Below, piece by piece: positions 5,561 to 57,400 of a DNA stretch of 64,000 bases. The stretch covers positions 113,353 through 177,352 of the forward strand of contig JAUCBJ010007900.1 of the NCBI GenBank assembly GCA_032718475.1, in the 5' to 3' direction. The DNA is from Nemertoderma westbladi. Lineage: Eukaryota; Animalia; Xenacoelomorpha. Both the position numbers and the translations under genes were made by a program. Numbering within the stretch: the first letter of the stretch is position 1; every line of letters begins with the position of its first letter. Under the pieces are notes generated by a model. The model was not told the origin of the DNA. It was given only the letters and a program-made list of their open reading frames with translations, and did no database searches.

Positions 5561-5712
5561 AAAATTGTTGATAGGGTCACGCTGAGTTCCAATGGGGTTC
5601 TGCTTGAGTCCCAATGGGGTTCTCGGATTTGATTGAGTCCCATAGGGGTTCTGCCTTGTTTTACATCCAGGGCGCGGGGACACGCTGAGTCCCATATGGG
5701 TTCTGCCTTGTT

Positions 5713-13692: not shown

Positions 13693-13749
13693 CAGGAGAG
13701 CCAGGGAATAACGACGATACAGTATACTCTTTAGTTTTTGTAGTACAGT

Positions 13750-14010: not shown

Positions 14011-14554
14011 TACAGTTCTACTTGTATTAGGCTACTTTGCTATTGTTTATACATGGCACTGAATGTTCATTATTATTAGTAGTAGTATTAGCGTAATGAA
14101 TTACCAGAAAACGCATATGTAATTAGATATTTAATTGATTGGAATTCGCATATGTTAATGTTAATTATATACTTGGCATAGTATGTACAGTAGGCCTATG
14201 AGTTGAGGTCATTCTTAACAACCACTTTGTTAGGTAATCTCAATTTTGGCTCAGTAAGTTCTGATTTGCTTTTGATGATAAAGTTATTTACTGCTGATGA
14301 TGCGATTTGTGATTAGCTTTGTGTTTCATTTGCTCTGTTTAGTTTATTTAATAATAAATTTTAAAAAGTACAGTAATATTCATCGTCTTGTTTTATAATA
14401 TAATACATGGAAAACAAATAAAGCTTTTTCCAGCTGACCCCGGATGTTGCATTTTCTGAGCGTGGATTACCGAATGAAGTTAAATACAACAAGGAGTGAT
14501 AGGGAAAGAAATGCATTTGTTTTCATCTAATATGTAATTTTATTTGACAAAATT

Positions 14555-14880
14555 GCCTTTTCACCACCCGCTATTGACTTTTTCACCTCCCGTTATTGAC
14601 TTTTCACCTTCCATAATTAACTTTTTCACCTCCCTCCCTCCGTTATTGACTTTTTCACCCCCGTTATTGATTTTTTACCTCCCGTTATTGCCTTTTTCAC
14701 CTTCCGTTATTACTTTTTCGCCTCCCTCCCTCCCGTTATTGACTTATTCACCCCCGTTATTGACTTTTTCACCTCCCGTTATTGCCTTTATCACACCCCG
14801 TTATTGCCTTTTCACATCCGGTTATTGCCTTTTTCACCTCCCGTTATTGCCCTTTTCATCTCCCGTTATTGCCCTTTCAT
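14555..14880 (+). repeat. Pyrimidine-rich ~21-22-bp minisatellite (TTTTCACCTCCCGTTATTGAC/GCC)
   Basis: About 15 degenerate copies of CCCGTTATTG.C.TTTTCAC. Confidence 0.85.
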
Positions 14881-15310: not shown

Positions 15311-15472
15311 ATGCAGAGCAAATACGTGTCGGTTCCCAGTCACGCATCCACTCCGAGGTCATCCTCTTTCAATTGGAGAACCCCTGTCCCTTCGGTTACA
15401 AACTCAACTACAAGTCTCAAAGCCAAATGGGAAGAAGAGGAAAAGGAAGAAAGAGCAAAGAGAGCCAAAAAG
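15311..15472 (+). CDS. Host gene coding exon 1 (MQSKYVSVPSHASTPR...EEEEKEERAKRAKK)
   Basis: Acceptor TTCCAG at 15286 (frame also open from 15287), ATG at 15311, donor AAG|GTAATA, phase 0. Confidence 0.65.
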
Positions 15473-21400: not shown

Positions 21401-24400
21401 TTCTGTCAAACGAATACGCAAACAAACAATAACAACAATATTATATACTTTATAGTAGTTTGATGTTTGTTTGTTTATGTTTGTTTGTTATATTTAAAAT
21501 AAATCTGCCTTAGTTGGGGAACTCAAAACAAGAGTCTTACACGTTACACCCCATAAACTACAAAAAAATATAGAATCAGGACATTAAGCCCAAATTAGTA
21601 CTCAGGCCCTAGGCCAATCAAAGGACACAATAAAAAAAAACAACAAACAAAACAAATATAATAACATGCTCCACATACAGGTATGTATCGCAACCCTAAC
21701 CCTAAACCTAACCGCCATGCGCTAAATGATACCGGTAGTAAACTGCACGAAACCTAAGCCTATATTCTATAAGAAAATATATGACAATTTTGTCGCCGTT
21801 TTGGGGAAAATTAACAGTTTGACAAGAAACAATAAACGCTCCTCAAAAGTTCCGGCTAAAAAACACTGGCTATCATTAAGAAAACACTTTATTCTCACCT
21901 CGGCAAAAATTTGCGCAGTTTAAGATATGTTTTAGAGTGCGCAATTATTAAAGTAATATATAAATTAACCATCGCCTTTTCACGAATGTTACAACGAACG
22001 GCTGTACATTATTAAGTTATATTATACTATGCTATATTACTAATGCTATACTAATACTAATACTATGCTATACTACTAATGCTATATTATACAAGTTATA
22101 TTACAGTATATATTACCAATGTAGGTGTCTCAACAACTTCATAGACCTATCTCTGAGGTTTAAACTTAGGCTAAAGTTTTCAAGATCAATAACATGCTTA
22201 CTTATTCTGTTTACACTGTTATATACCATCATCATAGAATTGATTGTGTTGGTTGAAACAAGGCAGTCATTCGCAAGAGACATGATGTCATACTGTTAAT
22301 TCAACATGTATGAATGTATAGTATGGAGTGGAGGGAGACATTCAACAGCACACTGCACACTGCCTGGATGAGAGGTGATGTGGGGACTCAGAACAGTGAA
22401 TTCGCTAAGCGAATGTACTGCCTTGCCTACATAATGTATGTAGTTATTGACTATTATTATTCTGACACTGCTGCAATAAACAATACCTATTACCTTTGTT
22501 AACATCTGTTTTAGTCGCAATTAGTCGTAAAGTTATATGGTAGACGTTTCTAAGGTGGCTCTGCACGGCCACTATGAGTCATGTCTGGACTAAATCTATC
22601 TACTGTACGGATAAGATCAAGGAAATACATTTATTTATTGATCTTACTTACAACTTCCGTAAGGGAATGAGATTCTATTAAAAGAGGGAAACGATGGGGA
22701 AGCAGCTATTAAAACAAATCAGACAGCAAACTTGGTGCAAATCTATTCTGTTAAAAGGTATGAAGCCGCTAGGGGGGACTTGAAAGTTTTTTAATCTACC
22801 GCAAAAGCCGAATTGTCTAAATTTTAAAACCTTTTCTAATTTCCGTAAAGCGAAATCTTGCCAGATAAAGTATAGACTACAGGCTGCATCGATGAGGTAG
22901 CGCTGCACCCACCGTCTGCGCAATTCCCCAGTTCCCAGTATCGAAAGTTGTCTGTCAAAAGTTTAGAAATGTTTCAAATATAATTTGCTTGGGGCGTTTG
23001 AGCAGCAGGAGTGTCACCGTCTATCGTTTTGGCTGCCTAATGGTTTGGAGTTCCGGAGTTTTGCATCAAATAGTGGGTCTTTCCTTCATGAAATTAAAAC
23101 AAACTTTATATGTTGCGTTGTCTATAAAAAGTTTTATAAATGTATATTTGGCGGGCCTTTCGCTCGTCACTTGAGCGACGGAATACACCTCGCATAATAT
23201 AAGTGAATGTGTCTCGTTCTGCGTGAAGAACGTTCCACGAACGTGTTGTCTGTAAGCGATAGAATTATTCGCCGGGAATTGTTTTTTATTTTTTTTAAAT
23301 ATATATCTATGTAACGGGATGTAGTGATAAACATACAGTACTATTATTAAAAAACAAAAAAGAAACAGTCATTAATTAAACAATGGGGTCGATAAGCCAA
23401 CTATGCTGTATTCTGTAATAGCCAAGAATACAGGCCATGTAGCTAAGATTTAGGGCATATTAGCGCAGTCTGAAGGTTTCAATAGGCTATATATGGGTTA
23501 TTCAATCTTTAGGTCCGCGTAGCGAGACCTCTTACTAGTATTCACTCCGTTGTTGTTGTTATTTTCTCGTTAGGTTTTGGTATTAACGCTAGATACCGTC
23601 CCAGTGGCTCAGTTGGCAGAGCGTGGGACATGGAATCTCTAGTTACTGAGTTCAATCACCCATTACGGTGAATGTTTTTTTGTTGTAAGATTGGTAGTAA
23701 GTCATTCAAGGAGGAGACAGTTCATGCGTTAGTAGACGCGGACCTTTGCTGCCCGATATCGCGCTTGTTATTATTGATAGTTAGACAATGTTTGTATAAT
23801 TATTAGTCGAATTATACTTCTAGTAAACTATATTTTGTAATTTGTTATGTTTGTACTGTTTGTAATTTGTTATGTTTGTACTGTTTGTAATTTTTTATGT
23901 TTGTACTGTTTGTACTGTTTGTAATTTATTATGTTTGTACTGTTTGTAATTTATATGTTTGTACTGTTTGTAATTTATTATGTTTGTACTATATTTATAC
24001 TTTTAAAGCTTGTTGTTTGCAATGTAAATTTATTACAAAATACAAATTTTAGATTTTAGGAGACCAAAAGGAGCATCAGAAAACCGGGAAAATTAAAGAT
24101 AATGACGACCTGGATACATTCTGGGAACATTACGATAAACCGAGTTGCTACAATTCATATATACGGGAACTGCCGAGTGAAGAATTGTGTAGTAAAGTTG
24201 ATAAACACAGAGGTGGGAACATTTGATAAACACAGAAGGCAAGAACAGATTGATAAACCTAGAGATAGGAACAGATTGATAAACACAGAGGTAGGAACAC
24301 CAAAACAGGTTGATAAACACAGAGGTAGAAAGAAGGAATAGGTTGATAAACACGAGGTAGGAACATAGTAACAGATTGATAAACACAGAGGGAGGAACAT

Positions 24401-27400
24401 AGTAACAGATTGATAAACACAGAGGTAGGAAAGTAGTAACATATTGATAAACACAGAGGTATAAAGTAGGAATAGGTTGATAAACACAGATATATGAACA
24501 CCAAGTAGTAACAGATTGATAAACACAGAGGTAGGAACATAGTAACAGATTGATAAACACAGAGGTAGGAAAGTAGTAACAGATTTATAAACACAGAGGT
24601 AGGAACATAGTAACAGATTGATAAACACAGAGGTAGGAACATAGTAACAGATTGATAAACACAGAGGTAGGAAAGTAGTAACAGATTTATAAACACAGAG
24701 GTAGGAACATAGTAACAGATTGATAAACACAGAGGTAGGCAAGTAGTAACAGATTGATAAACACAGAGGTAGGAACATAGTAACAGATTGATAAACACAG
24801 AGGTAGGAAAGTAGTAACAGATTTATAAACACAGAGGTAGGAACATAGTAACAGATTGATAAACACAGAGGTAGGAACATAGTAACAGATTGATAAACAC
24901 AGAGGTAGGAAAGTAGTAACAGATTTATAAACACAGAGGTGGAACATAGTAACAGATTGATAAACACAGAGGTAGGCAAGTAGTAACAGATTGATAAACA
25001 CAGAGGTAGGAACATAGTAACAGATTGATAAACACAGAGGTAGGAACATAGTAACAGATTGATAAACACAGAGGTAGGAAAGTAGTAACATATTGATAAA
25101 CACAGAGGTAGGAACATAGTAACAGATTGATAAACACAGAGGTAGGAAAGTAGTAATATATTGATAAACACAGAGGTAGGAACATAGTAACAGATTGATA
25201 AACACAGAGGTAGGAAAGTAGTAACATATTGATAAACACAGAGGTAGGAACATAGTAACAGATTGATAAACACAGAGGTAGGAAAGTAGTAACATATTGA
25301 TAAACACAGAGGTAGGAACATTGTAACAGATTGATAAACACAGAGGTAGGCAAGTAGTAACAGATTGATAAACACAGAGGTAGGAACATAGTAACAGATT
25401 GATAAACACAGAGGTAGGAAAGTAGTAACATATTGATAAACACAGAGGTAGGAACATAGTAACAGATTGATAAACACAGAGGTAGGAAAGTAGTAACAGA
25501 TTTATAAACACAGAGGTAGGAACATAGTAACAGATTGATAAACACAGAGGTTGGAACATTGTAACAGATTGATAAACACAGAGGTAGGCAAGTAGTAACA
25601 GATTGATAAACACAGAGGTAGGAACATAGTAACAGATTGATAAACACAGAGGTAGGAACATAGTAACATATTGATAAACACAGAGGTAGGAACATATTGA
25701 TAAACACAGAGGTAGGAACATAGTAACAGATTGATAAACACAGAGGTAGGAAAGTAGTAACATATTGATAAACACAGAGGTAGGAACATATTTATAAACA
25801 CAGAGGTAGAAAGTAGGCATAGGTTGATAAACACAGAGGTAGGAACATAGTAACAGATTGATAAACACAGAGGTATGAAAGTAGTAACATATTGATAAAC
25901 ACAGAGGTAGGAACATAGTAACAGATTGATAAACACAGAGGTAGGAACATAGTAACAGATTGATAAACACAGAGGTAGGAAAGTAGTAACAGATTTATAA
26001 ACACAGAGGTAGGAACATAGTAACAGATTGATAAACACAGAGGTAGGCAAGTAGTAACAGATTGATAAACACAGAGGTAGGAACATAGTAACAGATTGAT
26101 AAACACAGAGGTAGGAAAGTAGTAACAGATTTATAAACACAGAGGTAGGAACATAGTAACAGATTGATAAACACAGAGGTAGGAACATAGTAACAGATTG
26201 ATAAACACAGAGGTAGGAAAGTAGTAACAGATTTATAAACACAGAGGTAGGAACATAGTAACAGATTGATAAACACAGAGGTAGGCAAGTAGTAACAGAT
26301 TGATAAACACAGAGGTAGGAACATAGTAACAGATTGATAAACATAGAGGTAGGAACATAGTAACAGATTGATAAACACAGAGGTAGGAAAGTAGTAACAT
26401 ATTGATAAACACAGAGGTAGGAACATAGTAACAGATTGATAAACACAGAGGTAGGAAAGTAGTAATATATTGATAAACACAGAGGTAGGAACATAGTAAC
26501 AGATTGATAAACACAGAGGTAGGAAAGTAGTAACATATTGATAAACACAGAGGTAGGAACATAGTAACAGATTGATAAACACAGAGGTAGGAAAGTAGTA
26601 ACATATTGATAAACACAGAGGTAGGAACATTGTAACAGATTGATAAACACAGAGGTAGGCAAGTAGTAACAGATTGATAAACACAGAGGTAGGAACATAG
26701 TAACAGATTGATAAACACAGAGGTAGGAAAGTAGTAACATATTGATAAACACAGAGGTAGGAACATAGTAACAGATTGATAAACACAGAGGTAGGAAAGT
26801 AGTAACAGATTTATAAACACAGAGGTAGGAACATAGTAACAGATTGATAAACACAGAGGTTGGAACATTGTAACAGATTGATAAACACAGAGGTAGGCAA
26901 GTAGTAACAGATTGATAAACACAGAGGTAGGAACATAGTAACAGATTGATAAACACAGAGGTAGGAACATAGTAACAGATTGATAAACACAGAGGTAGGA
27001 AAGTAGTAACATATTGATAAACACAGAGGTAGGAACATAGTAACAGATTGATAAACACAGAGGTAGGAAAGTAGTAACATATTGATAAACACAGAGGTAG
27101 GAACATAGTAACAGATTGATAAACAAAGAGGTAGGAAAGTAGTAACATATTGATAAACACAGAGGTAGGAACATATTTATAAACACAGAGGTAGAAAGTA
27201 GGCATAGGTTGATAAACTCAGAGGTAGGAACATAGTAACAGATTGATAAACACAGAGGTAGGAAAGTAGTAACATATTGATAAACACAGAGGTAGGAACA
27301 TAGTAACAGATTGATAAACACAGAGGTAGGAAAGTAGTAACATATTGATAAGCACAGAGGTAGGAAAGTAGTAACATATTGATAAACACAGAGGTAGGAA

Positions 27401-30400
27401 CATAGTAACAGATTGATAAACACAGAGGTAGGAAAGTAGTAACATATTGATAAACACAGAGGTAGGAACATATTGATAAACACAGAGGTAGGAACATATT
27501 TATAAACACAGAGGTAGAAAGTAGGCATAGGTTGATAAACACAGAGGTAGGAACATAGTAACAGATTGATAAACACAGAGGTAGGAACATAGTAACAGAT
27601 TGATAAACACAGAGGTAGGAAAGTAGTAACATATTGATAAACACAGAGGTAGGAACATAGTAACAGATTGATAAACACAGAGGTAGGAAAGTAGTAACAT
27701 ATTGATAAACACAGAGGTAGGAACATATTTATAAACACAGAGGTAGGAACATATTTATAAACAAAGAGGTAGAAAGTAGGCATAGGTTGATAAACACAGA
27801 GGTAGGAACATAGTAACAGATTGATAAACACAGAGGTAGGAACATAGTAACAGATTGATAAACACAGAGGTAGGAAAGTAGTAACATATTGATAAACACA
27901 GAGGTAGGAACATATTTATAAACACAGAGGTAGAAAGTAGGCATAGGTTGATAAACACAGAGGTAGGAACATAGTAACAGATTGATAAACACAGAGGTAG
28001 GAACATAGTAACAGATTGATAAACACAGAGGTAGGAACATAGTAACAGATTGATAAACACAGAGGTAGGAAAGTAGTAACATATTGATAAACACAGAGGT
28101 AGGAACATAGTAACAGATTGATAAACACAGAGGTAGGAAAGTAGTAACATATTGATAAACACAGAGGTAGGAACATATTTATAAACGCAGAGGTAGGAAC
28201 ATAGTAACAGATTGATAAACACAGAGGTAGGAAAGTAGTAACATATTGATAAACACAGAGGTAGGAACATATTTATAAACACAGAGGTAGGAACATGGTA
28301 ACAGATTGATAAACACAGAGGTAGGAAAGTAGTAACATATTGATAAACACAGAGGTAGGAACATATTGATAAACACAGAGGTAGGAACATAGTAACAGAT
28401 TGATAAACACAGAGGTAGGAAAGTAGTAACATATTGATAAACACAGAGGTAGGAACATATTTATAAACACAGAGGTAGAAAGTAGGCATAGGTTGATAAA
28501 CACAGAGGTAGGAACATAGTAACAGATTGATAAACACAGAGGTATGAAAGTAGTAACATATTGATAAACACAGAGGTAGGAACATAGTAACAGATTGATA
28601 AACACAGAGGTAGGAAAGTAGTAACATATTGATAAACACAGAGGTAGGAACATAGTAACAGATTGATAAACACAGAGGTAGGAAAGTAGTAACATATTGA
28701 TAAACACAGAGGTAGGAACATAGTAACAGATTGATAAACACAGAGGTAGGAAAGTAGTAACATATTGATAAATACAGAGGTAGGAACATATTTATAAACA
28801 CAGAGGTAGGAACATATTTATAAACAAAGAGGTAGAAAGTAGGCATAGGTTGATAAACACAGAGGTAGGAACATAGTAACAGATTGATAAACACAGAGGT
28901 AGGAACATAGTAACAGATTGATAAACACAGAGGTAGGAAAGTAGTAACATATTGATAAACACAGAGGTAGGAACATATTTATAAACACAGAGGTAGAAAG
29001 TAGGCATAGGTTGATAAACACAGAGGTAGGAACATAGTAACAGATTGATAAACACAGAGGTAGGAACATAGTAACAGATTGATAAACACAGAGGTAGGAA
29101 CATAGTAACAGATTGATAAACACAGAGGTAGGAACATAGTAACAGATTGATAAACACAGAGGTAGGAAAGTAGTAACATATTGATAAACACAGAGGTAGG
29201 AACATAGTAACAGATTGATAAACACAGAGGTAGGAAAGTAGTAACATATTGATAAACACAGAGGTAGGAACATATTTATAAACGCAGAGGTAGGAACATA
29301 GTAACAGATTGATAAACACAGAGGTAGGAAAGTAGTAACATATTGATAAACACAGAGGTAGGAACATATTTATAAACACAGAGGTAGGAACATGGTAACA
29401 GATTGATAAACACAGAGGTAGGAAAGTAGTAACATATTGATAAACACAGAGGTAGGAACATATTGATAAACACAGAGGTAGGAACATAGTAACAGATTGA
29501 TAAACACAGAGGTAGGAAAGTAGTAACATATTGATAAACACAGAGGTAGGAACATATTTATAAACACAGAGGTAGAAAGTAGGCATAGGTTGATAAACAC
29601 AGAGGTAGGAACATAGTAACAGATTGATAAACACAGAGGTATGAAAGTAGTAACATATTGATAAACACAGAGGTAGGAACATAGTAACAGATTGATAAAC
29701 ACAGAGGTAGGAAAGTAGTAACATATTGATAAACACAGAGGTAGGAACATAGTAACAGATTGATAAACACAGAGGTAGGAAAGTAGTAACATATTGATAA
29801 ACACAGAGGTAGGAACATAGTAACAGATTGATAAACACAGAGGTAGGAAAGTAGTAACATATTGATAAATACAGAGGTAGGAACATATTTATAAACACAG
29901 AGGTAGGAACATATTTATAAACAAAGAGGTAGAAAGTAGGCATAGGTTGATAAACACAGAGGTAGGAACATAGTAACAGATTGATAAACACAGAGGTAGG
30001 AACATAGTAACAGATTGATAAACACAGAGGTAGGAAAGTAGTAACATATTGATAAACACAGAGGTAGGAACATATTTATAAACACAGAGGTAGAAAGTAG
30101 GCATAGGTTGATAAACACAGAGGTAGGAACATAGTAACAGATTGATAAACACAGAGGTAGGAACATAGTAACAGATTGATAAACACAGAGGTAGGAACAT
30201 AGTAACAGATTGATAAACACAGAGGTAGGAACATAGTAACAGATTGATAAACACAGAGGTAGGAAAGTAGTAACATATTGATAAACACAGAGGTAGGAAC
30301 ATAGTAACAGATTGATAAACACAGAGGTAGGAAAGTAGTAACATATTGATAAACACAGAGGTAGGAACATAGTAACAGATTGATAAACACAGAGGTAGGA

Positions 30401-33400
30401 AAGTAGTAACATATTGATAAACACAGAGGTAGGAACATATTTATAAACACAGAGGTAGAAAGTAGGCATATGTTGATAAACACAGAGGTAGGAACATAGT
30501 AACAGATTGATAAACACAGAGGTAGGAACATAGTAACAGATTGATAAACACAGAGGTAGGAAAGTAGTAACATATTGATAAACACAGAGGTAGGAACATA
30601 TTTATAAACACAGAGGTAGAAAGTAGGCATATGTTGATAAACACAGAGGTAGGAACATAGTAACAGATTGATAAACACAGATGTAGGAACATAGTAACAG
30701 ATTGATAAACACAGAGGTAGGAAAGTAGTAACATATTGATAAACACAGAGGTAGGAACATAGTAACAGATTGATAAACACAGAGGGAGGAAAGTAGTAAC
30801 ATATTGATAAACACAGAGGTAGGAACATATTTATAAACAAAGAGGTAGGAACATGGTAACAGATTGATAAACACAGAGGTAGGAAAGTAGTAACATATTG
30901 ATAAACACAGAGGTAGGAACATATTGATAAACACAGAGGTAGGAACATAGTAACAGATTGATAAACACAGAGGTAGGAAAGTAGTAACATATTGATAAAC
31001 ACAGAGGTAGGAACATATTTATAAACACAGAGGTAGAAAGTAGGCATAGGTTGATAAACACAGAGGTAGGAACATAGTAACAGATTGATAAACACAGAGG
31101 TATGAAAGTAGTAACATATTGATAAACACAGAGGTAGGAACATAGTAACAGATTGATAAACACAGAGGTAGGAAAGTAGTAACATATTGATAAACACAGA
31201 GGTAGGAACATAGTAACAGATTGATAAACACAGAGGTAGGAAAGTAGTAACATATTGATAAACACAGAGGTAGGAACATATTTATAAACACAGAGGTAGA
31301 AAGTAGGCATATGTTGATAAACACAGAGGTAGGAACATAGTAACAGATTGATAAACACAGAGGTAGGAACATAGTAACAGATTGATAAACACAGAGGTAG
31401 GAAAGTAGTAACATATTGATAAACACAGAGGTAGGAACATATTTATAAACACAGAGGTAGAAAGTAGGCATATGTTGATAAACACAGAGGTAGGAACATA
31501 GTAACAGATTGATAAACACAGAGGTAGGAACATAGTAACAGATTGATAAACACAGAGGTAGGAAAGTAGTAACATATTGATAAACACAGAGGTAGGAACA
31601 TAGTAACAGATTGATAAACACAGAGGTAGGAAAGTAGTAACATATTGATAAACACAGAGGTAGGAACATAGTAACAGATTGATAAACACAGAGGTAGGAA
31701 AGTAGTAACATATTGATAAACACAGAGGTAGGAACATATTTATAAACACAGAGGTAGAAAGTAGGCATATGTTGATAAACACTGAGGTAGGAACATAGTA
31801 ACAGATTGATAAACACAGAGGTAGGAACATAGTAACAGATTGATAAACACAGAGGTAGGAAAGTAGTAACATATTGATAAACACAGAGGTAGGAACATAT
31901 TTATAAACACAGAGGTAGAAAGTAGGCATATGTTGATAAACACAGAGGTAGGAACATAGTAACAGATTGATAAACACAGATGTAGGAACATAGTAACAGA
32001 TTGATAAACACAGAGGTAGGAAAGTAGTAACATATTGATAAACACAGAGGTAGGAACATAGTAACAGATTGATAAACACAGAGGGAGGAAAGTAGTAACA
32101 TATTGATAAACACAGAGGTAGGAACATATTTATAAACACAGAGGTAGGAACATGGTAACAGATTGATAAACACAGAGGTAGGAAAGTAGTAACATATTGA
32201 TAAACACAGAGGTAGGAACATATTGATAAACACAGAGGTAGGAACATAGTAACAGATTGATAAACACAGAGGTAGGAAAGTAGTAACATATTGATAAACA
32301 CAGAGGTAGGAACATATTTATAAACACAGAGGTAGAAAGTAGGCATAGGTTGATAAACACAGAGGTAGGAACATAGTAACAGATTGATAAACACAGAGGT
32401 ATGAAAGTAGTAACATATTGATAAACACAGAGGTAGGAACATAGTAACAGATTGATAAACACAGAGGTAGGAAAGTAGTAACATATTGATAAACACAGAG
32501 GTAGGAACATAAACAGATTGATAAACACAGAGGTAGGAAAGTAGTAACATATTGATAAACACAGAGGTAGGAACATATTTATAAACACAGAGGTAGAAAG
32601 TAGGCATATGTTGATAAACACAGAGGTAGGAACATAGTAACAGATTGATAAACACAGAGGTAGGAACATAGTAACAGATTGATAAACACAGAGGTAGGAA
32701 AGTAGTAACATATTGATAAACACAGAGGTAGGAACATATTTATAAACACAGAGGTAGAAAGTAGGCATATGTTGATAAACACAGAGGTAGGAACATAGTA
32801 ACAGATTGATAAACACAGAGGTAGGAACATAGTAACAGATTGATAAACACAGAGGTAGGAAAGTAGTAACATATTGATAAACACAGAGGTAGGAACATAG
32901 TAACAGATTGATAAACACAGAGGTAGGAAAGTAGTAACATATTGATAAACACAGAGGTAGGAACATAGTAACAGATTGATAAACACAGAGGTATGAAAGT
33001 AGTAACATATTGATAAACACAGAGGTAGGAACATAGTAACAGATTGATAAACACAGAGGTAGGAAAGTAGTAACATATTGATAAACACAGAGGTAGGAAC
33101 ATAGTAACAGATTGATAAACACAGAGGTAGGAAAGTAGTAACATATTGATAAACACAGAGGTAGGAACATATTTATAAACACAGAGGTAGAAAGTAGGCA
33201 TATGTTGATAAACACAGAGGTAGGAACATAGTAACAGATTGATAAACACAGAGGTAGGAACATAGTAACAGATTGATAAACACAGAGGTAGGAAAGTAGT
33301 AACATATTGATAAACACAGAGGTAGGAACATATTTATAAACACAGAGGTAGAAAGTAGGCATATGTTGATAAACACAGAGGTAGGAACATAGTAACAGAT

Positions 33401-36400
33401 TGATAAACACAGAGGTAGGAACATAGTAACAGATTGATAAACACAGAGGTAGGAAAGTAGTAACATATTGATAAACACAGAGGTAGGAACATAGTAACAG
33501 ATTGATAAACACAGAGGTAGGAAAGTAGTAACATATTGATAAACACAGAGGTAGGAACATAGTAACAGATTGATAAACACAGAGGTAGGAAAGTAGTAAC
33601 ATATTGATAAACACAGAGGTAGGAACATATTTATAAACACAGAGGTAGAAAGTAGGCATATGTTGATAAACACAGAGGTAGGAACATAGTAACAGATTGA
33701 TAAACACAGAGGTAGGAACATAGTAACAGATTGATAAACACAGAGGTAGGAAAGTAGTAACATATTGATAAACACAGAGGTAGGAACATATTTATAAACA
33801 CAGAGGTAGAAAGTAGGCATATGTTGATAAACACAGAGGTAGGAACATAGTAACAGATTGATAAACACAGAGGTAGGAACATAGTAACAGATTGATAAAC
33901 ACAGAGGTAGGAAAGTAGTAACATATTGATAAACACAGAGGTAGGAACATAGTAACAGATTGATAAACACAGAGGTAGGAAAGTAGTAACATATTGATAA
34001 ACACAGAGGTAGGAACATAGTAACAGATTGATAAACACAGAGGTAGGAAAGTAGTAACATATTGATAAACACAGAGGTAGGAACATATTTATAAACACAG
34101 AGGTAGAAAGTAGGCATATGTTGATAAACACAGAGGTAGGAACATAGTAACAGATTGATAAACACAGAGGTAGGAACATAGTAACAGATTGATAAACACA
34201 GAGGTAGGAAAGTAGTAACATATTGATAAACACAGAGGTAGGAACATATTTATAAACACAGAGGTAGAAAGTAGGCATATGTTGATAAACACAGAGGTAG
34301 GAACATAGTAACAGATTGATAAACACAGATGTAGGAACATAGTAACAGATTGATAAACACAGAGGTAGGAAAGTAGTAACATATTGATAAACACAGAGGT
34401 AGGAACATAGTAACAGATTGATAAACACAGAGGGAGGAAAGTAGTAACATATTGATAAACACAGAGGTAGGAACATATTTATAAACACAGAGGTAGGAAC
34501 ATGGTAACAGATTGATAAACACAGAGGTAGGAAAGTAGTAACATATTGATAAACACAGAGGTAGGAACATATTGATAAACACAGAGGTAGGAACATAGTA
34601 ACAGATTGATAAACACAGAGGTAGGAAAGTAGTAACATATTGATAAACACAGAGGTAGGAACATATTTATAAACACAGAGGTAGAAAGTAGGCATAGGTT
34701 GATAAACACAGAGGTAGGAACATAGTAACAGATTGATAAACACAGAGGTATGAAAGTAGTAACATATTGATAAACACAGAGGTAGGAACATAGTAACAGA
34801 TTGATAAACACAGAGGTAGGAAAGTAGTAACATATTGATAAACACAGAGGTAGGAACATAGTAACAGATTGATAAACACAGAGGTAGGAAAGTAGTAACA
34901 TATTGATAAACACAGAGGTAGGAACATATTTATAAACACAGAGGTAGAAAGTAGGCATATGTTGATAAACACAGAGGTAGGAACATAGTAACAGATTGAT
35001 AAACACAGAGGTAGGAACATAGTAACAGATTGATAAACACAGAGGTAGGAAAGTAGTAACATATTGATAAACACAGAGGTAGGAACATATTTATAAACAC
35101 AGAGGTAGAAAGTAGGCATATGTTGATAAACACAGAGGTAGGAACATAGTAACAGATTGATAAACACAGAGGTAGGAACATAGTAACAGATTGATAAACA
35201 CAGAGGTAGGAAAGTAGTAACATATTGATAAACACAGAAGTAGGAACATAGTAACAGATTGATAAACACAGAGGTAGGAAAGTAGTAACATATTGATAAA
35301 CACAGAGGTAGGAACATAGTAACAGATTGATAAACACAGAGGTAGGAAAGTAGTAACATATTGATAAACACAGAGGTAGGAACATATTTATAAACACAGA
35401 GGTAGAAAGTAGGCATATGTTGATAAACACAGAGGTAGGAACATAGTAACAGATTGATAAACACAGAGGTAGGAACATAGTAACAGATTGATAAACACAG
35501 AGGTAGGAAAGTAGTAACATATTGATAAACACAGAGGTAGGAACATATTTATAAACACAGAGGTAGAAAGTAGGCATATGTTGATAAACACAGAGGTAGG
35601 AACATAGTAACAGATTGATAAACACAGAGGTAGGAACATAGTAACAGATTGATAAACACAGAGGTAGGAAAGTAGTAACATATTGATAAACACAGAGGTA
35701 GGAACATATTTATAAACACAGAGGTAGAAAGTAGGCATATGTTGATAAACACAGAGGTAGGAACATAGTAACAGATTGATAAACACAGAGGTAGGAACAT
35801 ATTTATAAACGCAGAGGTAGGAACATAGTAACAGATTGATAAACACAGAGGTAGGAAAGTAGTAACATATTGATAAACACAGAGGTAGGAACATATTTAT
35901 AAACACAGAGGTAGGAACATGGTAACAGATTGATAAACACAGAGGTAGGAAAGTAGTAACATATTGATAAACACAGAGGTAGGAACATATTGATAAACAC
36001 AGAGGTAGGAACATAGTAACAGATTGATAAACACAGAGGTAGGAAAGTAGTAACATATTGATAAACACAGAGGTAGGAACATATTTATAAACACAGAGGT
36101 AGAAAGTAGGCATAGGTTGATAAACACAGAGGTAGGAACATAGTAACAGATTGATAAACACAGAGGTATGAAAGTAGTAACATATTGATAAACACAGAGG
36201 TAGGAACATAGTAACAGATTGATAAACACAGAGGTAGGAAAGTAGTAACATATTGATAAACACAGAGGTAGGAACATAGTAACAGATTGATAAACACAGA
36301 GGTAGGAACATAGTAACATATTGATAAACACAGAGGTAGGAACATATTTATAAACACAGAGGTAGAAAGTAGGCATATGTTGATAAACACAGAGGTAGGA

Positions 36401-45400: not shown

Positions 45401-48400
45401 AACATAGTAACAGATTGATAAACACAGAGGTAGGAACATAGTAACAGATTGATAAACACAGAGGTAGGAAAGTAGTAACATATTGATAAACACAGAGGTA
45501 GGAACATATTTATAAACACAGAGGTAGAAAGTAGGCATATGTTGATAAACACAGAGGTAGGAACATAGTAACAGATTGATAAACACAGAGGTAGGAACAT
45601 AGTAACAGATTGATAAACACAGAGGTAGGAAAGTAGTAACATATTGATAAACACAGAGGTAGGAACATATTTATAAACACAGAGGTAGAAAGTAGGCATA
45701 TGTTGATAAACACAGAGGTAGGAACATAGTAACAGATTGATAAACACAGAGGTAGGAACATATTTATAAACGCAGAGGTAGGAACATAGTAACAGATTGA
45801 TAAACACAGAGGTAGGAAAGTAGTAACATATTGATAAACACAGAGGTAGGAACATATTTATAAACACAGAGGTAGGATCATGGTAACAGATTGATAAACA
45901 CAGAGGTAGGAAAGTAGTAACATATTGATAAACACAGAGGTAGGAACATATTGATAAACACAGAGGTAGAAAGTAGGCATAGGTTGATAAACACAGAGGT
46001 AGGAACATAGTAACAGATTGATAAACACAGAGGTATGAAAGTAGTAACATATTGATAAACACAGAGGTAGGAACATAGTAACAGATTGATAAACACAGAG
46101 GTAGGAAAGTAGTAACATATTGATAAACACAGAGGTAGGAACATAGTAACAGATTGATAAACACAGAGGTAGGAACATAGTAACATATTGATAAACACAG
46201 AGGTAGGAACATATTTATAAACACAGAGGTAGAAAGTAGGCATATGTTGATAAACACAGAGGTAGGAACATAGTAACAGATTGATAAACACAGAGGTAGG
46301 AACATAGTAACAGATTGATAAACACAGAGGTAGGAAAGTAGTAACATATTGATAAACACAGAGGTAGGAACATATTTATAAACACAGAGGTAGAAAGTAG
46401 GCATATGTTGATAAACACAGAGGTAGGAACATAGTAACAGATTGATAAACACAGAGGTAGGAACATAGTAACAGATTGATAAACACAGAGGTAGGAAAGT
46501 AGTAACATATTGATAAACACAGAGGTAGGAACATATTTATAAACACAGAGGTAGAAAGTAGGCATAGGTTGATAAACACAGAGGTAGAAAGTAGGAATAG
46601 GTTGATAAACACAGAGGTAGGAACATAGTAACAGATTGATAAACACAGATGTAGGAACATAGTAACAGATTGATAAACACAGAGGTAGGAACATAGTAAC
46701 AGATTGATAAACACAGAGGGAGGAAAGTAGTAACATATTGATAAACACAGAGGTATAAAGTAGGAATAGGTTGATAAACACAGAGGTAGAAAGTAGGAAT
46801 AGGTTGATAAACACAGAGGTAGGAACATAGTAACAGATTGATAAACACAGAGGTAGGAAAGTAGTAACATATTGATAAACACAGAGGTAGGAACATATTT
46901 ATAAACACAGAGGTAGAAAGTAGGCATAGGTTGATAAACACAGAGGTAGAAAGTAGGAATAGGTTGATAAACACAGAGGTAGGAACATAGTAACAGATTG
47001 ATAAACACAGATGTAGGAACATAGTAACAGATTGATAAACACAGAGGTAGGAAAGTAGTAACATATTGATAAACACAGAGGTAGGAACATAGTAACAGAT
47101 TGATAAACACAGAGGTAGGAAAGTAGTAACATATTGATAAACACAGAGGTAGGAACATAGTAACAGATTGATAAACACAGAGGTAGGAAAGTAGTAACAT
47201 ATTGATAAACACAGAGGTAGGAACATAGTAACAGATTGATAAACACAGAGGTAGGAAAGTAGTAACATATTGATAAACACAGAGGTAGGAACATAGTAAC
47301 AGATTGATAAACACAGAGGTAGGAAAGTAGTAACATATTGATAAACACAGAGGTAGGAACATATTTATAAACACAGAGGTAGAAAGTAGGCATAGGTTGA
47401 TAAACACAGAGGTAGGAACATAGTAACAGATTGATAAACACAGAGATAGGAACATAGTAACAGAATGATAAACACAGAGGTAGGAAAGTAGTAACATATT
47501 GATAAACACAGAGGTAGGAACATAGTAACATATTGATAAACACAGAGGTAGGAAAGTAGTAACATATTGATAAACACAGAGGTAGGAACATAGTAACAGA
47601 TTGATAAACACAGAGGTAGGAAAGTAGTAACATATTGATAAACACAGAGGTAGGAACATATTTATAAACACAGAGGCAGAAAGTAGGCATAGGTTGATAA
47701 ACACAGAGGTAGGAACATAGTAACAGATTGATAAACACAGAGGTAGGAACATAATAACAGATTGATAAACACAGAGGTAGGAAAGTAGTAACATATTGAT
47801 AAACACAGAGGTAGGAACATAGTAACAGATTGATAAACACAGAGGTAGGAAAGTAGTAACATATTGATAAACACAGATGTAGGAACATATTTATAAACGC
47901 AGAGGTAGGAACATAGTAACAGATTGATAAACACAGAGGTAGGAAAGTAGTAACATATTGATAAACACAGAGGTAGTAACATATTGATAAACACAGAGGT
48001 AGGAACATAGTAACAGATTGATAAACACAGAGGTAGGAAAGTAGTAACATATTGATAAACACAGATGTAGGAACATATTTATAAACGCAGAGGTAGGAAC
48101 ATGGTAACAGATTGATAAACACAGAGGTAGGAAAGTAGTAACATATTGATAAACACAGAGGTAGGAACATATTGATAAACACAGAGGTAGGAACATAGTA
48201 ACAGATTGATAAACACAGAGGTAGGAAAGTAGTAACATATTGATAAACACAGAGGTAGGAACATATTTATAAACACAGAGGTAGAAAGTAGGCATAGGTT
48301 GATAAACACAGAGGTAGGAACATAGTAACAGATTGATAAACACAGAGGTATGAAAGTAGTAACATATTGATAAACACAGAGGTAGGAACATAGTAACAGA

Positions 48401-51400
48401 TTGATAAACACAGAGGTAGGAAAGTAGTAACATATTGATAAACACAGAGGTAGGAACATAGTAACAGATTGATAAACACAGAGGTAGGAAAGTAGTAACA
48501 TATTGATAAACACAGAGGTAGGAACATAGTAACAGATTGATAAACACAGAGGTAGGAAAGTAGTAACATATTGATAAACACAGAGGTAGGAACATATTTA
48601 TAAACACAGAGGTAGAAAGTAGGCATATGTTGATAAACACAGAGGTAGGAACATAGTAACAGATTGATAAACACAGAGGTAGGAACATAGTAACAGATTG
48701 ATAAACACAGAGGTAGGAAAGTAGTAACATATTGATAAACACAGAGGTAGGAACATATTTATAAACACAGAGGTAGAAAGTAGGCATAGGTTGATAAACA
48801 CAGAGGTAGAAAGTAGGAATAGGTTGATAAACACAGAGGTAGGAACATAGTAACAGATTGATAAACACAGAGGTAGGAAAGTAGTAACATATTGATAAAC
48901 ACAGAGGTAGGAACATATTTATAAACACAGAGGTAGAAAGTAGGCATAGGTTGATAAACACAGAGGTAGAAAGTAGGAATAGGTTGATAAACACAGAGGT
49001 AGGAACATAGTAACAGATTGATAAACACAGATGTAGGAACATAGTAACAGATTGATAAACACAGAGGTAGGAAAGTAGTAACATATTGATAAACACAGAG
49101 GTAGGAACATAGTAACAGATTGATAAACACAGAGGGAGGAAAGTAGTAACATATTGATAAACACAGAGGTAGGAACATATTTATAAACACAGAGGTAGGA
49201 ACATGGTAACAGATTGATAAACACAGAGGTAGGAAAGTAGTAACATATTGATAAACACAGAGGTAGGAACATATTGATAAACACAGAGGTAGGAACATAG
49301 TAACAGATTGATAAACACAGAGGTAGGAAAGTAGTAACATATTGATAAACACAGAGGTAGGAACATATTTATAAACACAGAGGTAGAAAGTAGGCATAGG
49401 TTGATAAACACAGAGGTAGGAACATAGTAACAGATTGATAAACACAGAGGTATGAAAGTAGTAACATATTGATAAACACAGAGGTAGGAACATAGTAACA
49501 GATTGATAAACACAGAGGTAGGAAAGTAGTAACATATTGATAAACACAGAGGTAGGAACATAGTAACAGATTGATAAACACAGAGGTAGGAAAGTAGTAA
49601 CATATTGATAAACACAGAGGTAGGAACATATTTATAAACACAGAGGTAGAAAGTAGGCATAGGTTGATAAACACAGAGGTAGAAAGTAGGAATAGGTTGA
49701 TAAACACAGAGGTAGGAACATAGTAACAGATTGATAAACACAGATGTAGGAACATAGTAACAGATTGATAAACACAGAGGTAGGAAAGTAGTAACACATT
49801 GATAAACACAGAGGTAGGAACATATTTATAAACACAGAGGTAGAAAGTAGGCATATGTTAATAAACACAGAGGTAGGAACATAGTAACAGATTGATAAAC
49901 ACAGAGGTAGGAAAGTAGTAACATATTGATAAACACAGAGGTAGGAACATATTTATAAACACAGAGGTAGAAAGTAGGCATAGGTTGATAAACACAGAGG
50001 TATAAAGTAGGAATAGGTTGATAAACACAGAGGTAGGAACATAGTAACAGATTGATAAACACAGAGGTAGGAAAGTAGTAACATATTGATAAACACAGAG
50101 GTAGGAACATATTTATAAACACAGAGGTAGAAAGTAGGCATAGGTTGATAAACACAGAGGTAGAAAGTAGGAATAGGTTGATAAACACAGAGGTAGGAAC
50201 ATAGTAACAGATTGATAAACACAGATGTAGGAACATAGTAACAGATTGATAAACACAGAGGTAGGAAAGTAGTAACATATTGATAAACACAGAGGTAGGA
50301 ACATAGTAACAGATTGATAAACACAGAGGTAGGAAAGTAGTAACATATTGATAAACACAGAGGTAGGAACACAGTAACAGATTGATAAACACAGAGGTAG
50401 GAAAGTAGTAACATATTGATAAACACAGAGGTAGGAACATAGTAACAGATTGATAAACACAGAGGTAGGAAAGTAGTAACATATTGATAAACACAGAGGT
50501 AGGAACATAGTAACAGATTGATAAACACAGAGGTAGGAAAGTAGTAACATATTGATAAACACAGAGGTAGGAACATATTTATAAACACAGAGGTAGAAAG
50601 TAGGCATAGGTTGATAAACACAGAGGTAGGAACATAGTAACAGATTGATAAACACAGAGGTAGGAACATAGTAACAGATTGATAAACACAGAGGTAGGAA
50701 AGTAGTAACATATTGATAAACACAGAGGTAGGAACATAGTAACAGATTGATAAACACAGAGGTAGGAAAGTAGTACCATATTGATAAACACAGAGGTAGG
50801 AACATAGTAACAGATTGATAAACACAGAGGTAGGAAAGTAGTAACATATTGATAAACACAGAGGTAGGAACATATTTATAAACACAGAGGTAGAAAGTAG
50901 GCATAGGTTGATAAACACAGAGGTAGGAACATAGTAACAGATTGATAAACACAGAGGTAGGAACATAGTAACAGATTGATAAACACAGAGGTAGGAAAGT
51001 AGTAACATATTGATAAACACAGAGGTAGGAACATAGTAACAGATTGATAATCACAGAGGTAGGAAAGTAGTAACATATTGATAAACACAGAGGTAGGAAC
51101 ATAGTAACAGATTGATAAACACAGAGGTAGGAAAGTAGTAACATATTGATAAACACAGAGGTAGGAACATAGTAACAGATTGATAAACACAGAGGTAGGA
51201 AAGTAGTAACATATTGATAAACACAGAGGTAGGAACATATTTATAAACAAAGAGGTAGAAAGTAGGCATAGGTTGATAAACACAGAGGTAGGAACATAGT
51301 AACAGATTGATAAACACAGAGGTAGGAACATAGTAACAGATTGATAAACACGGAGGTAGGAAAGTAGTAACATATTGATAAACACAGAGGTAGGAACATA

Positions 51401-54400
51401 TTTATAAACACAGAGGTAGAAAGTAGGCATAGGTTGATAAACACAGAGGTAGGAACATAGTAACAGATTGATAAACACAGAGGTAGGAACATAGTAACAG
51501 ATTGATAAACACAGAGGTAGGAACATAGTAACAGATTGATAAACACAGAGGTAGGAAAGTAGTAACATATTGATAAACACAGAGGTAGGAACATAGTAAC
51601 AGATTGATAAACACAGAGGTAGGAAAGTAGTAACATATTGATAAACACAGAGGTAGGAACATATTTATAAACGCAGAGGTGGGAACATAGTAACAGATTG
51701 ATAAACACAGAGGTAGGAAAGTAGTAACATATTGATAAACACAGAGGTAGGAACATATTTATAAACACAGAGGTAGGAACATGGTAACAGATTGATAAAC
51801 ACAGAGGTAGGAAAGTAGTAACATATTGATAAACACAGAGGTAGGAACATATTGATAAACACAGAGGTAGGAACATAGTAACAGATTGATAAACACAGAG
51901 GTAGGAACGTAGTAACATATTGATAAACACAGAGGTAGGAACATATTTATAAACACAGAGGTAGAAAGTAGGCATAGGTTGATAAACACAGAGGTAGGAA
52001 CATAGTAACAGATTGATAAACACAGAGGTATGAAAGTAGTAACATATTGATAAACACAGAGGTAGGAACATAGTAACAGATTGATAAACACAGAGGTAGG
52101 AAAGTAGTAACATATTGATAAACACAGAGGTAGGAACATAGTAACAGATTGATAAACACAGAGGTAGGAAAGTAGTAACATATTGATAAACACAGAGGTA
52201 GGAACATAGTAACAGATTGATAAACACAGAGGTAGGAAAGTAGTAACATATTGATAAACACAGAGGTAGGAACATATTTATAAACACAGAGGTAGAAAGT
52301 AGGCTTAGGTTGATAAACACAGAGGTAGGAACATAGTAACAGATTGATAAACACAGAGGTAGGAACATAGTAACAGATTGATAAACACAGAGGTAGGAAA
52401 GTAGTAACATATTGATAAACACAGAGGTAGGAACATATTTATAAACAATAGGTTGATAAACACAGAGGTTGGAACATAGTAACAGATTGATAAACACAGA
52501 GGTAGGAAAGTAGTAACATATTGATACTACTACTACTACTACTACTAGGATCGGCATGCTGCATTGCAGCTGCATTTTTAAGAATGCTGTGCCGGCTTGT
52601 CAACAAAATTGCACCGCCACAACTCCCTATCACCCATGACATTTGCTAGATCATCCGCATCTTTAAGGCCAGTGTCCTTTAAGATGCGTCTCAAGAAAGT
52701 CATGGGCTGTCCACCATGCTTATTCACTCCATGAGGCTGCCAAAGTACAAGATTATGCACTGGCTGATCCTCACGGCGAAAGCAATGTCCTGCAAAGCGG
52801 AGGCGATTTTGTTCTAGTGTCAAGCTTGGGGGAACCAATGAGACACCTCCAATGTTATATAGTGTCTGGTTGGAGATGTGTGCATTGTACTTTACACAAT
52901 GAACCCGGCGTAGCATTCTTGTGAATGTGCCATCCAGAGATTTGGTGTCCTCAGCAGTTAGAGCCCAGCATGGACTCCCGTAGAGGAGTACTGGAACTAC
53001 TGCTGCTCTAAATAATCGGACCTTAAGTTTCCGATTAATTCTCGGTGACTTCCAAATCCTGGAAAGCCTATTCAAGGCTGCCCATGCCTTTCCCTTATGT
53101 ATTCGAAGGTCCTCACCTGACTTCCGGATCCATGATCCCAGGTAACAGAAGTCGTCCACATGCTCAAGCATACCATCCTTTGAGCTTATGCTCATCCGAT
53201 CAGAGACTTGCTGAGGACTTTCAAAGTTAACTGTCAGAATTTTGGTCTTTCTGGAGTTAATAAAAAGACCAACACTAGAAGCAGCATGTTCTAATGAGCT
53301 GAGGAGCCGTTGGGCTCCCTCTAATGATTCTGAGAGTACTCCTAAGTCATCAGCAAAGTCTAGATCAGTTAGGTACTTGGCAGGATTTCCTCGACTTCTG
53401 GAGCCAGTAGGTGGAGTTATCATCACCCCATCATCATTATAATGATCTAAGGACATGCGTAGAACATAGTCAACCACAATAATGAACAAGAATGGTGCAA
53501 GTGTGTCTCCTTGGAGGACGCCCCATAACACTTCAAATGGTTCTGTGTCACCGTCAACAGTAGACACAAGACATATTGACTATATACCAACATATCAACA
53601 TATTGATAAACACAGAGGTAGGAACATATTTATAAACACAGAGGTAGAAAGTAGGCATAGGTTGATAAACACAGAGGTAGAAAGTAGGAATAGGTTGATA
53701 AACACAGAGGTAGGAACATAGTAACAGATTGATAAACACAGAGGTAGGAAAGTAGTAACATATTGATAAACACAGAGGTAGGAACATATTTATAAACACA
53801 GAGGTAGAAAGTAGGCCTAGGTTGATAAACACAGAGGTAGAAAGTAGGAATAGGTTGATAAACACAGAGGTAAAAGTAGGAATAGGTTGATAACCACAGA
53901 GGTAGGAACATATTGATAAACACCGAGGTAGGAAGAGATTGATAAACATAGAGGTAGGAACATATTGATAAACACCGAGGTAGGAAGAGATTGATAAACA
54001 TAGAGGTAGGAACATATTGATAAACGCATATATAGGAACATGCAGTAGTAACAGGTTGATAAACACCGAGGTAGGAACATATTGATAAACACAGAAATAG
54101 GAACATACAGTAGTAACAGGTTGATAAACACAGAGGTAGGAACATATTGATAAACACCGAGGTAGGAAGAGATTGATAAACATAGAGGTAGGAACATATT
54201 GATAAACACCGAGGTAGGAAGAGATTGATAAACACAGAGATAGGAACATATTGATAAACATAGAGGTAGGAACATATTGATAAACACGGAGATAGGAACA
54301 TATTGATAAACACAGAGGTAGGAAGAGATTGATAAACATAGAGGTAGGAACATATTGATAAACACAGAGATAGGAACATATTGATAAACATAGAGGTAGG

Positions 54401-57400
54401 AACATATTGATAAACACTGAGATAGGAACATATTGATAAACACAGAGGTAGGAAGAGATTGATAAACATAGAGGTAGGAACATATTGATAAACACAGAGG
54501 TAGGAACATAGTAACAGATTGATAAACACAGAGGTAGGAAAGTAGTAACATATTGATAAACACAGAGGTAGGAACATATTATTGATAAACACCGAGGTAG
54601 GAAGAGATTGATAAACATAGAGGTAGGAACATATTGATAAACACATATATAGGAACATATTGATAAACACAGAGGTAGGAAGAGATTGATAAACATAGAG
54701 GTAGGAACATATTGATAAACACAGAGGTAGGAACATAGTAACAGATTGATAAACACAGAGGTAGGAAAGTAGTAACAGGTTGATAAACGCCGAGGTAGGA
54801 ACATATTATTGATAAACACCGAGGTAGGAAGAGATTGATAAACATAGAGGTAGGAACATATTGATAAACACATATATAGGAACATGCAGTAGTAACAGGT
54901 TGATAAACACCGAGGTAGGAACATATTGATAAACACAGAAATAGGAACATACAGTTGTAACAGGTTGATAAACACAGAGGTAGGAACATATTGATAAACA
55001 CAGATATAGGAACATAATGATAAACACGGAGATAGGAACATACAGTTGTAACAGGTTGATAAACACAGAGGTAGGAACAGGTTGATAAACACAGAGGTAG
55101 AAAGTAGGAACATATTGATAAACACAGAGGTAGAAAGTTGGATCAGATTGATGAACGCAGAGGTAGGAACATTTGATAAACTACTACTACTACGATCGGC
55201 ATGCTGCATTGCAGCTGCATTGTATATATTACATATATATTAAGAATGCTGTGCCGGCTTTTCGACAAAATCGCGCCGCCACAATTCCCTATCACCCATG
55301 ACATTTGCTAGTTCATCCGCATCTTCAAGGCCAGTGTCCTTTAAGATGCGTCTCATGTCATAGGCTGTCCACCATGCTTATTCGCTCCATGATGCCGCCA
55401 AAGCACAAGATTATGCACTGGCGGGTCCTCACGGCTAAAGCAATGTCCTGCAAACCGGAGGAGGTTCCGTTCAAGTGTCAAGCTAGGGAAGACTAATGGA
55501 ACACCTCCAATGTTGTATAGAGTCTGATTGGAGTTGAGGAGATGTGTGCATTGTACTTGACTCAATGAACCAGGCGCAGCATTATTGTGAATGTGCCATC
55601 AGGAGATTTGGTATCCTATGCAGTAAGAGCCCAGCATGGACTCTCATATAAGAGTACTGGTTCTGCTACTGCCATAAATTATCGAACCTAAAGGTTCCGT
55701 TTTATTCTATGGGAGTTCCAAATCCTGGACAGACTATTTAACGCTACCCATGCCTTCACCTTACGTATCCGAAGGTCTTCACCTGACTTTCTGATCCATG
55801 AGCCCAAGTAGCAGAAGTAGTTTGATAAACACAAAAGGTAGTAAGTAGGAACAGGTTGATAAACACAGTATTAGGAACAGATTGATGAACACAAAGGTAG
55901 GAAACATATTATAAACACGATTCTGATCAATAATATAATATACTTCGCAGAGTACCACACCACCACCGTATTATTTATCTTAGATTTAGTTCTATTTCAT
56001 CTTGAAATATGTCTAGGTTACGGAAGTAGTTCGGAATTTGATCGAAGCGAAGGTATAGGAACAATAGAGGAGAGAGATGAAGGACCAGCGACAATATCTA
56101 AGGATGAAAAGATTACATCCAAGTAAGAAGCGGATATGTGTTAATTTACAATAAATATAATGGAATGGAACATTTAAATGAAACCAAAATGAGCTAGATT
56201 AATCAGAAATTATATTAAGATCATAATATTATTATTACATATAATATCACTTTATAAGGCTCTGATATCTCCAGTCATTTTTCAAAAATAATTATTATTC
56301 TTAAATTGTTACTTTTTCGGGCGAATATTCCCAAAAATCGGGATAAATAGGAGTATTTTTATTCTTTTTTTCATTGGATTTAAGTAACCCATAGGATTCA
56401 TTGATTTTACTTATTCTCAGCGAAAGAAGTAATTACTATAATAAATGTATAATAAACCTTGAAGTTAAACTTAGAGAATATTAACAGAATAAGTAAATGG
56501 AGTTTATCAGCTGGTAGTTACTACAGTATACGATATACAATAAATATTTGCAAATTAGGCTGTAAATGTATATAGAACAGGGCGTTTAAAGTAGGATTCC
56601 AAATATCCCTGTCCTCTCTGCCAAATGACCCCACGTGTTGGGAGGATTGGCATGTTTGACCTCTGTCGACTAAATCGATCCTAACGTTTTAACAACTGTT
56701 TAAAATCAATACAAACTATGACTGAAAGATAGCCCAATAAATTCTGGACAAAATGAGAACTCATATTAAACAAATGAGTAAACAGATTGGAAGATATGAG
56801 CGTATTAGACAAAAACATGCCGAAAGTCCCTACCCTCCCCTACAGTAATTTTAATCGCAGTAACTACAGTATGGAAGCAATATAGTAAAATTCTGCAGTT
56901 CAAATTATCTTGTAACACTTTCTTTGTATCTTTTATTAATAATGAATTAGCACTAAAAAGTACCAATTATTTAAGAGTAAAATTTCATATTACATAGGAA
57001 AAAACGTGGAACATTTTTTTTCAATATTTCCCCGCCTCGACACTTTATTAACCTTACTTATTAACCTTGGCGTTATTAACAGTGGAGAAAAGGTCTAAAT
57101 TTTTCACCAAGTAATAAGTAATTAATTTTTCTTCTGCGTTTGTTTTGGGCCATGTTGTTCTTCTGATTCTGAAAAAGAGAGTAAAACCTCCCAAAATGAG
57201 TTACAACGGAAACGGTACTTTAGTGCTGTACTACTGTATATCAAACCAGCACATAACTATTACTTTCATTTTTTGGTAAACTGTACAAAATTTTTTTATT
57301 GAAATTTACCATGCTTATACGGCGTATACGGAATCTCTGTAATTTTCTTCTCCTCTTTATTGTAATTTTAACTACAGTATAACTATTAATCACTAATACT

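Follow-up and report, generated by a model that had tools for sequence, protein, structure and literature searches.

The stretch analysed here (the window) comprises 64,000 nucleotides of Nemertoderma westbladi (assembly GCA_032718475.1, contig JAUCBJ010007900.1, positions 113,353 to 177,352 of the forward strand) and is eukaryotic, repeat-rich DNA; all positions given below are those of the window. Its main feature is a minisatellite of about 30 kb (24197..55929, + strand) which copies the end of predicted exon 4 of a predicted gene, together with its 5' splice site (donor), about 900 times. From the exon model and the known cases, the spliceosome likely uses the first donor only, the rest being silent and likely neutral filler. 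The layout is that of a known class, the exon-boundary minisatellites of the human F7 intron 7 (IVS7) type and the lancelet mirages; new here are the scale (about 890 donors, 31.8 kb) and the presence of three arrays in one gene. An earlier note on this DNA had offered two options, a tuning of productive against unproductive transcripts by the length or composition of the array, or an exon definition that ignores the competing donors. The second fits both the known cases and the anatomy of the locus; nothing in the present data speaks for the first.

The 34-bp array and its donors

Tandem Repeats Finder identified a period-34 array with 865 copies at 24270-52526 and further pieces up to 55918. 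A fuzzy search recovered 923 unit cores from 24197 to about 55929, arranged head-to-tail with a spacing of 34, 26 or 33 nt and with a GT at the junction in 893 of the 923, in broad agreement with the roughly 900 or more tandem donors given by the earlier note. A second cutting of the array gave 928 unit starts, so that the counts of the fuzzy search are slightly low, and 88 distinct unit types were found among 927 cut segments. The junction reads AG|GT in 870 of the 893 GT units, the most frequent types being GAG|GTAGGA (723) and GAG|GTAGAA (104). The array is discontinuous, being interrupted by two antisense fragments of long interspersed nuclear elements (LINEs) bearing reverse transcriptase sequence, at 52527-53569 and 55180-55821, of which the earlier note makes no mention. 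Sites with a U1 duplex of -6 kcal/mol or lower number 850 across the array region, at a density of 26.8 per kb against 2.4 per kb in unique DNA (9,084 nt, + strand), an 11-fold difference. A search for relatives with the pattern of the 34-bp unit returned no matches.

The middle of the array is homogenised and its edges are diverged, as in concerted evolution. Common unit types make up 95-98% of the units between 30 and 50 kb, falling to 80% in the first bin and 39% in the last. A GT is missing from 4 of the 11 units of the 5' edge and from 12 of the 56 of the 3' part, compared with 14 of the 855 core units. Exact 400-mers are found again 458-6712 nt away, which indicates higher-order blocks of 0.5-6.7 kb.

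The predicted exon 4 (24053..24212, + strand, 160 nt, ab initio) ends in GAG|GTGGGA after 24212, and unit 1 of the array covers its last 15 nt or so (24197-24212) and, with this donor, the start of the intron. Reading past it gives G-G-N-I-stop, with a TGA after four codons (24224..24226, + strand, by frame analysis); the junction and the read-through are both as the earlier note had described them. Among the 2136 GT positions in 24213-56016 a single one, the first (after 24212), keeps the frame, and the claim that no later donor does so holds on the ab initio model. Every later donor carries the stop at 24224-24226 and is hence unproductive, and its transcripts would be targets of nonsense-mediated decay (NMD) under the exon-junction rule.

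The first donor had been called the least consensus-like of the series, a description that goes too far and depends on the measure. By exact matches to a 9-nt consensus it scores 5; the 892 later GT donors score higher in 751 cases, equally in 140 and lower in 1. By U1 duplex energy it reaches -8.9 kcal/mol and is the strongest of the 7 donors of the model; 159 later donors are weaker, including all 104 of the GTAGAA type, 1 is equal, and the common unit donor exceeds it by just 0.4 kcal/mol. It is also the best in-frame donor of exon 4. The upstream alternatives for which the earlier note allowed do exist, as four in-frame GTs (24143, 24176, 24188 and 24191), and all are much weaker, with U1 duplexes of only -1.8 to -3.3 kcal/mol. 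Units 2 and 3 lack GT, and the nearest competing donor thus lies 78 nt downstream of the first. Since such units are frequent at both edges, edge decay accounts for these two no less well than selection. The usual escape of array edges from homogenisation (PMC3087553) explains the odd first donor, and a special design is unneeded.

The units have no acceptor character. The pyrimidine fraction before the unit AG has a mean of 0.38 and a maximum of 0.45, the seven acceptors of the model having 0.50-0.64. The AG stands in a GAG context, which is rare for acceptors, in 869 of the 893 units, and a CAG lies 2 nt upstream in 863. Fifteen YAG sites of the intron have a pyrimidine fraction of at least 0.59; each falls inside a LINE insert, at the border of one, or within the final 35 nt. 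Having donors and no acceptor, the units define no exon, and only donor 1 closes one. These figures make a recursive removal of the intron very improbable, whether by use of the unit AG|GT as a ratchet or by a splice from a late unit leaving an AG before exon 5 that donor 1 would re-use. The AG|GT of nearly all GT units agrees with such a process, and the final mRNA would be identical, so that mature RNA is uninformative against it; the acceptor context, however, is wanting, and the CAG upstream of the unit AG would be taken first, shifting the frame.

A polyadenylation-like hexamer was observed a few nucleotides before the donor in nearly every unit (GATAAA in 796, TATAAA in 132), and canonical AATAAA occurs only twice in the array region. 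In the idea known as telescripting, U1 binding might mask premature cleavage at such hexamers.

As to origin, a small intron of roughly 100 nt would have had its exon-intron junction duplicated, after which unequal exchange would have amplified the array and homogenised its middle in kb-scale blocks while the edges decayed; the two LINE copies near the 3' end may have been inserted later. An origin of the whole intron in the tandem duplication of an AG|GT-containing piece of exon (a Rogers-type gain), with the array as amplified former exon, is quite improbable. The array read from the donor does resemble the first 50 nt or so of exon 5, the anchored score being reached by 6 of 1000 shuffles and by 2 of 1412 unique GT-start sites in a post hoc comparison. 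The unanchored likeness is not significant (836 of 2000 shuffles reach the score), and the 3' end of the intron is not a unit end: its final 87 nt are non-repetitive and lead up to an ordinary T-rich acceptor.

The predicted host gene and the choice of donor

The predicted host gene comprises 8 exons on the + strand with GT-AG introns and gives an open frame of 551 amino acids in an ab initio model. Besides exon 4 these are exon 1 (15311..15472, the first coding exon, with ATG at 15311), exon 2 (15892..15998, donor AA|GTTAGT), exon 3 (19365..19503), exon 5 (56017..56122, with an in-frame alternative acceptor at 55989), exon 6 (58691..58868, its last 32 nt within unit 1 of a 36-bp array), exon 7 (62823..62976) and the terminal exon 8 (63120..63769), open for 215 codons where the other frames have 21 and 18 stops. 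Exons 2-8 have a single open frame each. Predicted intron 4 (24213..56016, + strand) measures 31,804 nt, and the 31.8-kb intron of the earlier note stands to this extent in an open 8-exon model, as an ab initio prediction.

At each of 4 penalty settings, blind exon-chaining over unique blocks returned all 7 donors and the precise limits of exons 1-4, 7 and 8. For exons 5 and 6 it preferred in-frame acceptors that lengthen the exon, and it proposed 1-4 candidate exons beyond those of the model. The chain scored 1191, whereas the best of 40 local shuffles reached 624 and the best of 40 with the last block kept real reached 1125. Unpenalised chaining gave 694 amino acids; the minus strand yielded 385, and 40 shuffles yielded 140-422. 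This result supports the 8-exon model without proving it.

Two observations were made on the sites of the model. Upstream of exon 5 its frame stays open across the 87-nt intron end and on into the last units (55875-56126, + strand, 83 codons, no Met). The seven predicted donors (15472-62976) are degenerate by vertebrate standards, with T at +3 in two and no G at +5 in three, which suggests that the donor consensus of the organism is relaxed or that the model contains errors.

A wrong gene model would mean that exons 1-4 end in or near the array, that an upstream donor is used, or that the upstream exons are no gene, the donor-like motif being then incidental to an ordinary satellite. This is considered unlikely. 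The chain beats 40 of 40 shuffles in both nulls and always passes through 24212, the upstream GTs of exon 4 are weak, and the array at exon 6 has the same donor-spanning layout. A separate downstream gene is disfavoured by the frame of exons 5-8, whose first Met stands at residue 118 of 361. The hexamer found in nearly every unit would suit transcripts that end in the array, although the canonical form AATAAA occurs there just twice; the four in-frame GTs offer other donors for exon 4, and the phase compatibility of exons 4 and 5 is by itself a 1-in-3 event. No homolog or domain was found for the exon peptides searched, as detailed next.

Several points weigh against the use of the first donor only, some concerning the gene and others the competition. 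The 31,804-nt stretch is an intron as predicted by the ab initio model, and the chaining filters were set from the weakest sites of that same model over hand-chosen blocks, so that the test is partly circular. A codon-position model for which the adjacent PGAP2 frame served as training set failed to single out the frames of the predicted gene. With single-exon peptides as queries, no Pfam family was identified for any of the 8 exon peptides, none of 1193 candidates was confirmed for exon 8 against longer proteins, and none of 3 was confirmed as a homolog of exon 4. As for the competition, 732 of the 892 later donors pair better with U1 than the first, and seven later donors that were sampled are more exposed (unpaired 0.72-0.85 versus 0.58). 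Between the last GT unit (55896) and the acceptor there are 120 nt, close to the size of intron 7 of the model (143 nt), and the last donor would thus be favoured if the organism uses intron definition. In human 6-16 and CBS the two nearest downstream pseudo-sites are also used (PMC1557585). Finally, the precedents are all mammalian or lancelet, with 2-26 copies, and scaling them to about 890 would be an extrapolation.

Some candidates were rejected. A HMMER search against 1.84 billion representatives gave two matches, both to translated tandem repeats with scores summed over the repeats, and the best score in the ESM Atlas (0.86) belonged to unrelated bacterial clusters. Hiding of the later donors by RNA structure was ruled out on the seven sampled ones.

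The strength and exposure of the later donors and the leakage in 6-16 and CBS speak for a leaky decoy, in which a sizeable share of the transcripts would use later donors (the closest GT units, or the last one near the acceptor) and pass to NMD, so that array length or make-up would set the output of the gene. All 2135 later GTs break the frame, and the array at exon 6 likewise has one productive donor (1 of 99). A stop soon after the donor is, however, the default in this gene, since read-through of exons 3 and 5, where there is no array, stops within 4 and 1 codons. In the F7 IVS7 minigenes only the most upstream site was used, even where later sites carried a G to A change at +3, and competition arose solely with perfect-consensus downstream sites (PMC1557585). 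Known leakage moreover concerns the nearest sites, so that total array length should matter little, and the two units adjoining donor 1 have no GT. A leaky decoy therefore seems rather unlikely.

Use of the first donor alone would come about as follows, judging from mammalian work. Donor 1 would be paired across the 160-nt exon 4 with the acceptor of that exon, and would probably be held by U1 on the polymerase during synthesis of the intron. Where flanking introns are long, the human donor closest across the exon is preferred (ALTssDB, PMC9225289), and an upstream donor stays paired to U1 tethered to RNA polymerase II (PMC8316553). Transcripts spliced by mistake at a later donor would include the stop at 24224 and be removed by NMD; the array would then cost little and be tolerable, without being thereby a regulator.

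Other arrays and repeats of the window

A second donor-spanning array, identified by repeat and frame analysis, lies in predicted intron 2 (15997..19076, + strand) and comprises about 65 copies of a 47-bp unit. Its degenerate first unit starts 2 nt before the exon 2 donor (none of 2000 shuffles reach the score), and the frame is kept by 2 of 64 junctions. The exon 2 donor is weak, which makes this case softer. The third array (58837..62594, + strand), identified in the same way, comprises about 104 copies of a 36-bp unit with CAG|GTAAAA, and includes CAG|GTAA together with the final 32 nt of exon 6, 35 of 36 positions being identical. Unit 2 has a 5-nt insertion that results in a stop, and the frame is kept by one of the 99 GT junctions of the array. 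The units of the 34-, 36- and 47-bp arrays are unrelated, and the three arrays start at three of the 7 donors of the gene (exons 2, 4 and 6). A crude placement null gave a joint chance of 0.004 for arrays at donors; it is post hoc, takes the non-repeat remainder for the ancestral intron, and disregards small repeats within introns that touch no boundary, such as the one at 23834-23990. One could propose that donors in this genome repeatedly seed kb-scale minisatellites and that with the giant one a share of transcripts set by its length goes to later donors and NMD, or that it is spliced out in steps through its AG|GT units, in either case acting as a heritable dial on output; this combination is improbable.

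Two 22-bp arrays lie upstream of the coding exons. The one at 11880-13700 (+ strand) has a near-perfect first donor-like site, GAG|GTGAGT near 11925 (-11.9 kcal/mol), followed by eight GAG|GTGAGG, and may represent a fourth array of the donor-spanning kind, following a 5' untranslated exon; an acceptor candidate relevant to such an exon was found just before 15287. A diverged direct repeat pair (11040-11260 and 13750-13960, by eye) flanks this region. The other (14552-14879, - strand) has 10 donor-like sites of the GAG|GTGAAA type, or 30.6 per kb.

The LINE in the 34-bp array at 52527..53569 (- strand) is 5'-truncated, matches Pfam RVT_1 (E 5e-10) and is 98.3% identical (1024/1042) to the copy at 6614-7655. 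The one near the 3' end of the array (55180..55821, - strand) is an older 5'-truncated copy of the same LINE, 87.3% identical (538/616) to the copy ending at 7655. Three copies of this reverse transcriptase-bearing LINE, with a (TAG)n tail, were observed in the window (5584-8494, 52527-53569 and 55180-55821), all within minisatellites; the one ending at 7655 sits between 52-bp repeat units, with 4 unit motifs before it and 16 after. An insertion preference for minisatellites, or a tolerance in them, is possible. Degenerate LINE-like reverse transcriptase sequences of a second family were seen by eye at 1-1440 and 4270-5470 (+ strand).

An intronless gene of the PGAP2/Frag1 family (20445-21332, - strand, Pfam E 6e-37) is nested in predicted intron 3. 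Its best match, 41% identical, is a jellyfish protein, and a search of metagenome contigs with PGAP2 as query gave 28 pattern matches, none of them confirmed. An inverted repeat pair was seen by eye in predicted intron 5 (57700-57860 and 58400-58520); this pair and the direct repeat pair described above are possibly old DNA-transposon ends.

Comparison with known systems

If the first donor is still used, first-donor selection would extend from 5-26 human competitors to about 890 over 32 kb, most of these being slightly stronger and one standing only 120 nt away from the acceptor. The locus would then set exon definition and U1-polymerase tethering against intron definition in a naturally extreme case. 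With arrays at three donors of a single gene, it is also relevant to the question why repeats of the mirage type arise at splice boundaries. On sequence alone, the locus is a size record of a known class and likely not a regulatory device. No donor-spanning array of this size was found in the literature searched, most subscription papers being outside its scope.

As in other members of the class, whose head-to-tail units measure about 10-160 bp, the predicted boundary of the 34-bp array lies in unit 1 and the donor is reiterated. The closest case is the 37-bp variable number tandem repeat of human F7 intron 7 (Borensztajn et al. 2006, PMC1557585), which has a similar unit length, a boundary-spanning first unit and a reiterated donor. 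In both systems a weak donor with G at +3 comes first, and in F7 the competitors with A at +3 lost. F7 has 5-9 units, against about 923 here, and 4 exonic nucleotides in unit 1, against about 15. The F7 copies are identical to the real donor, whereas the first unit here is a diverged edge unit. The minisatellites of human 6-16 intron 2, CBS intron 13, LMNB2 and PDGF share the layout and comprise 10-26 units, and either the first site or the first and the two nearest are used (PMC1557585); 6-16 and CBS leak to near sites, whereas the two nearest units here lack GT. Recursive splicing ratchet points also have an AG directly before a GT inside a long intron. The array differs from them in having no pyrimidine tract, GAG in place of YAG, and hundreds of copies 34 nt apart.

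The lancelet mirages (Adh3, the globins BflGb6/9, TnC and PGBD5) are likewise tandem copies of exon-intron boundaries in an invertebrate that recur within a genome, by a mechanism called unclear (PMC3087553, PMC3902484). They leave splicing undisturbed, their boundary units are excluded from homogenisation as are those of the 34-bp array, and a link to intron gain has been proposed for them (PMC3087553). Donor usage was measured in F7 (PMC1557585) and the mirages are backed by reverse transcription-polymerase chain reaction and polymorphism data (PMC3087553), whereas the present arrays are known from one sequence. The lancelet globin mirages comprise 2-6 units (PMC3087553), whereas 65, 104 and about 923 units are found here at three donors of one predicted gene.

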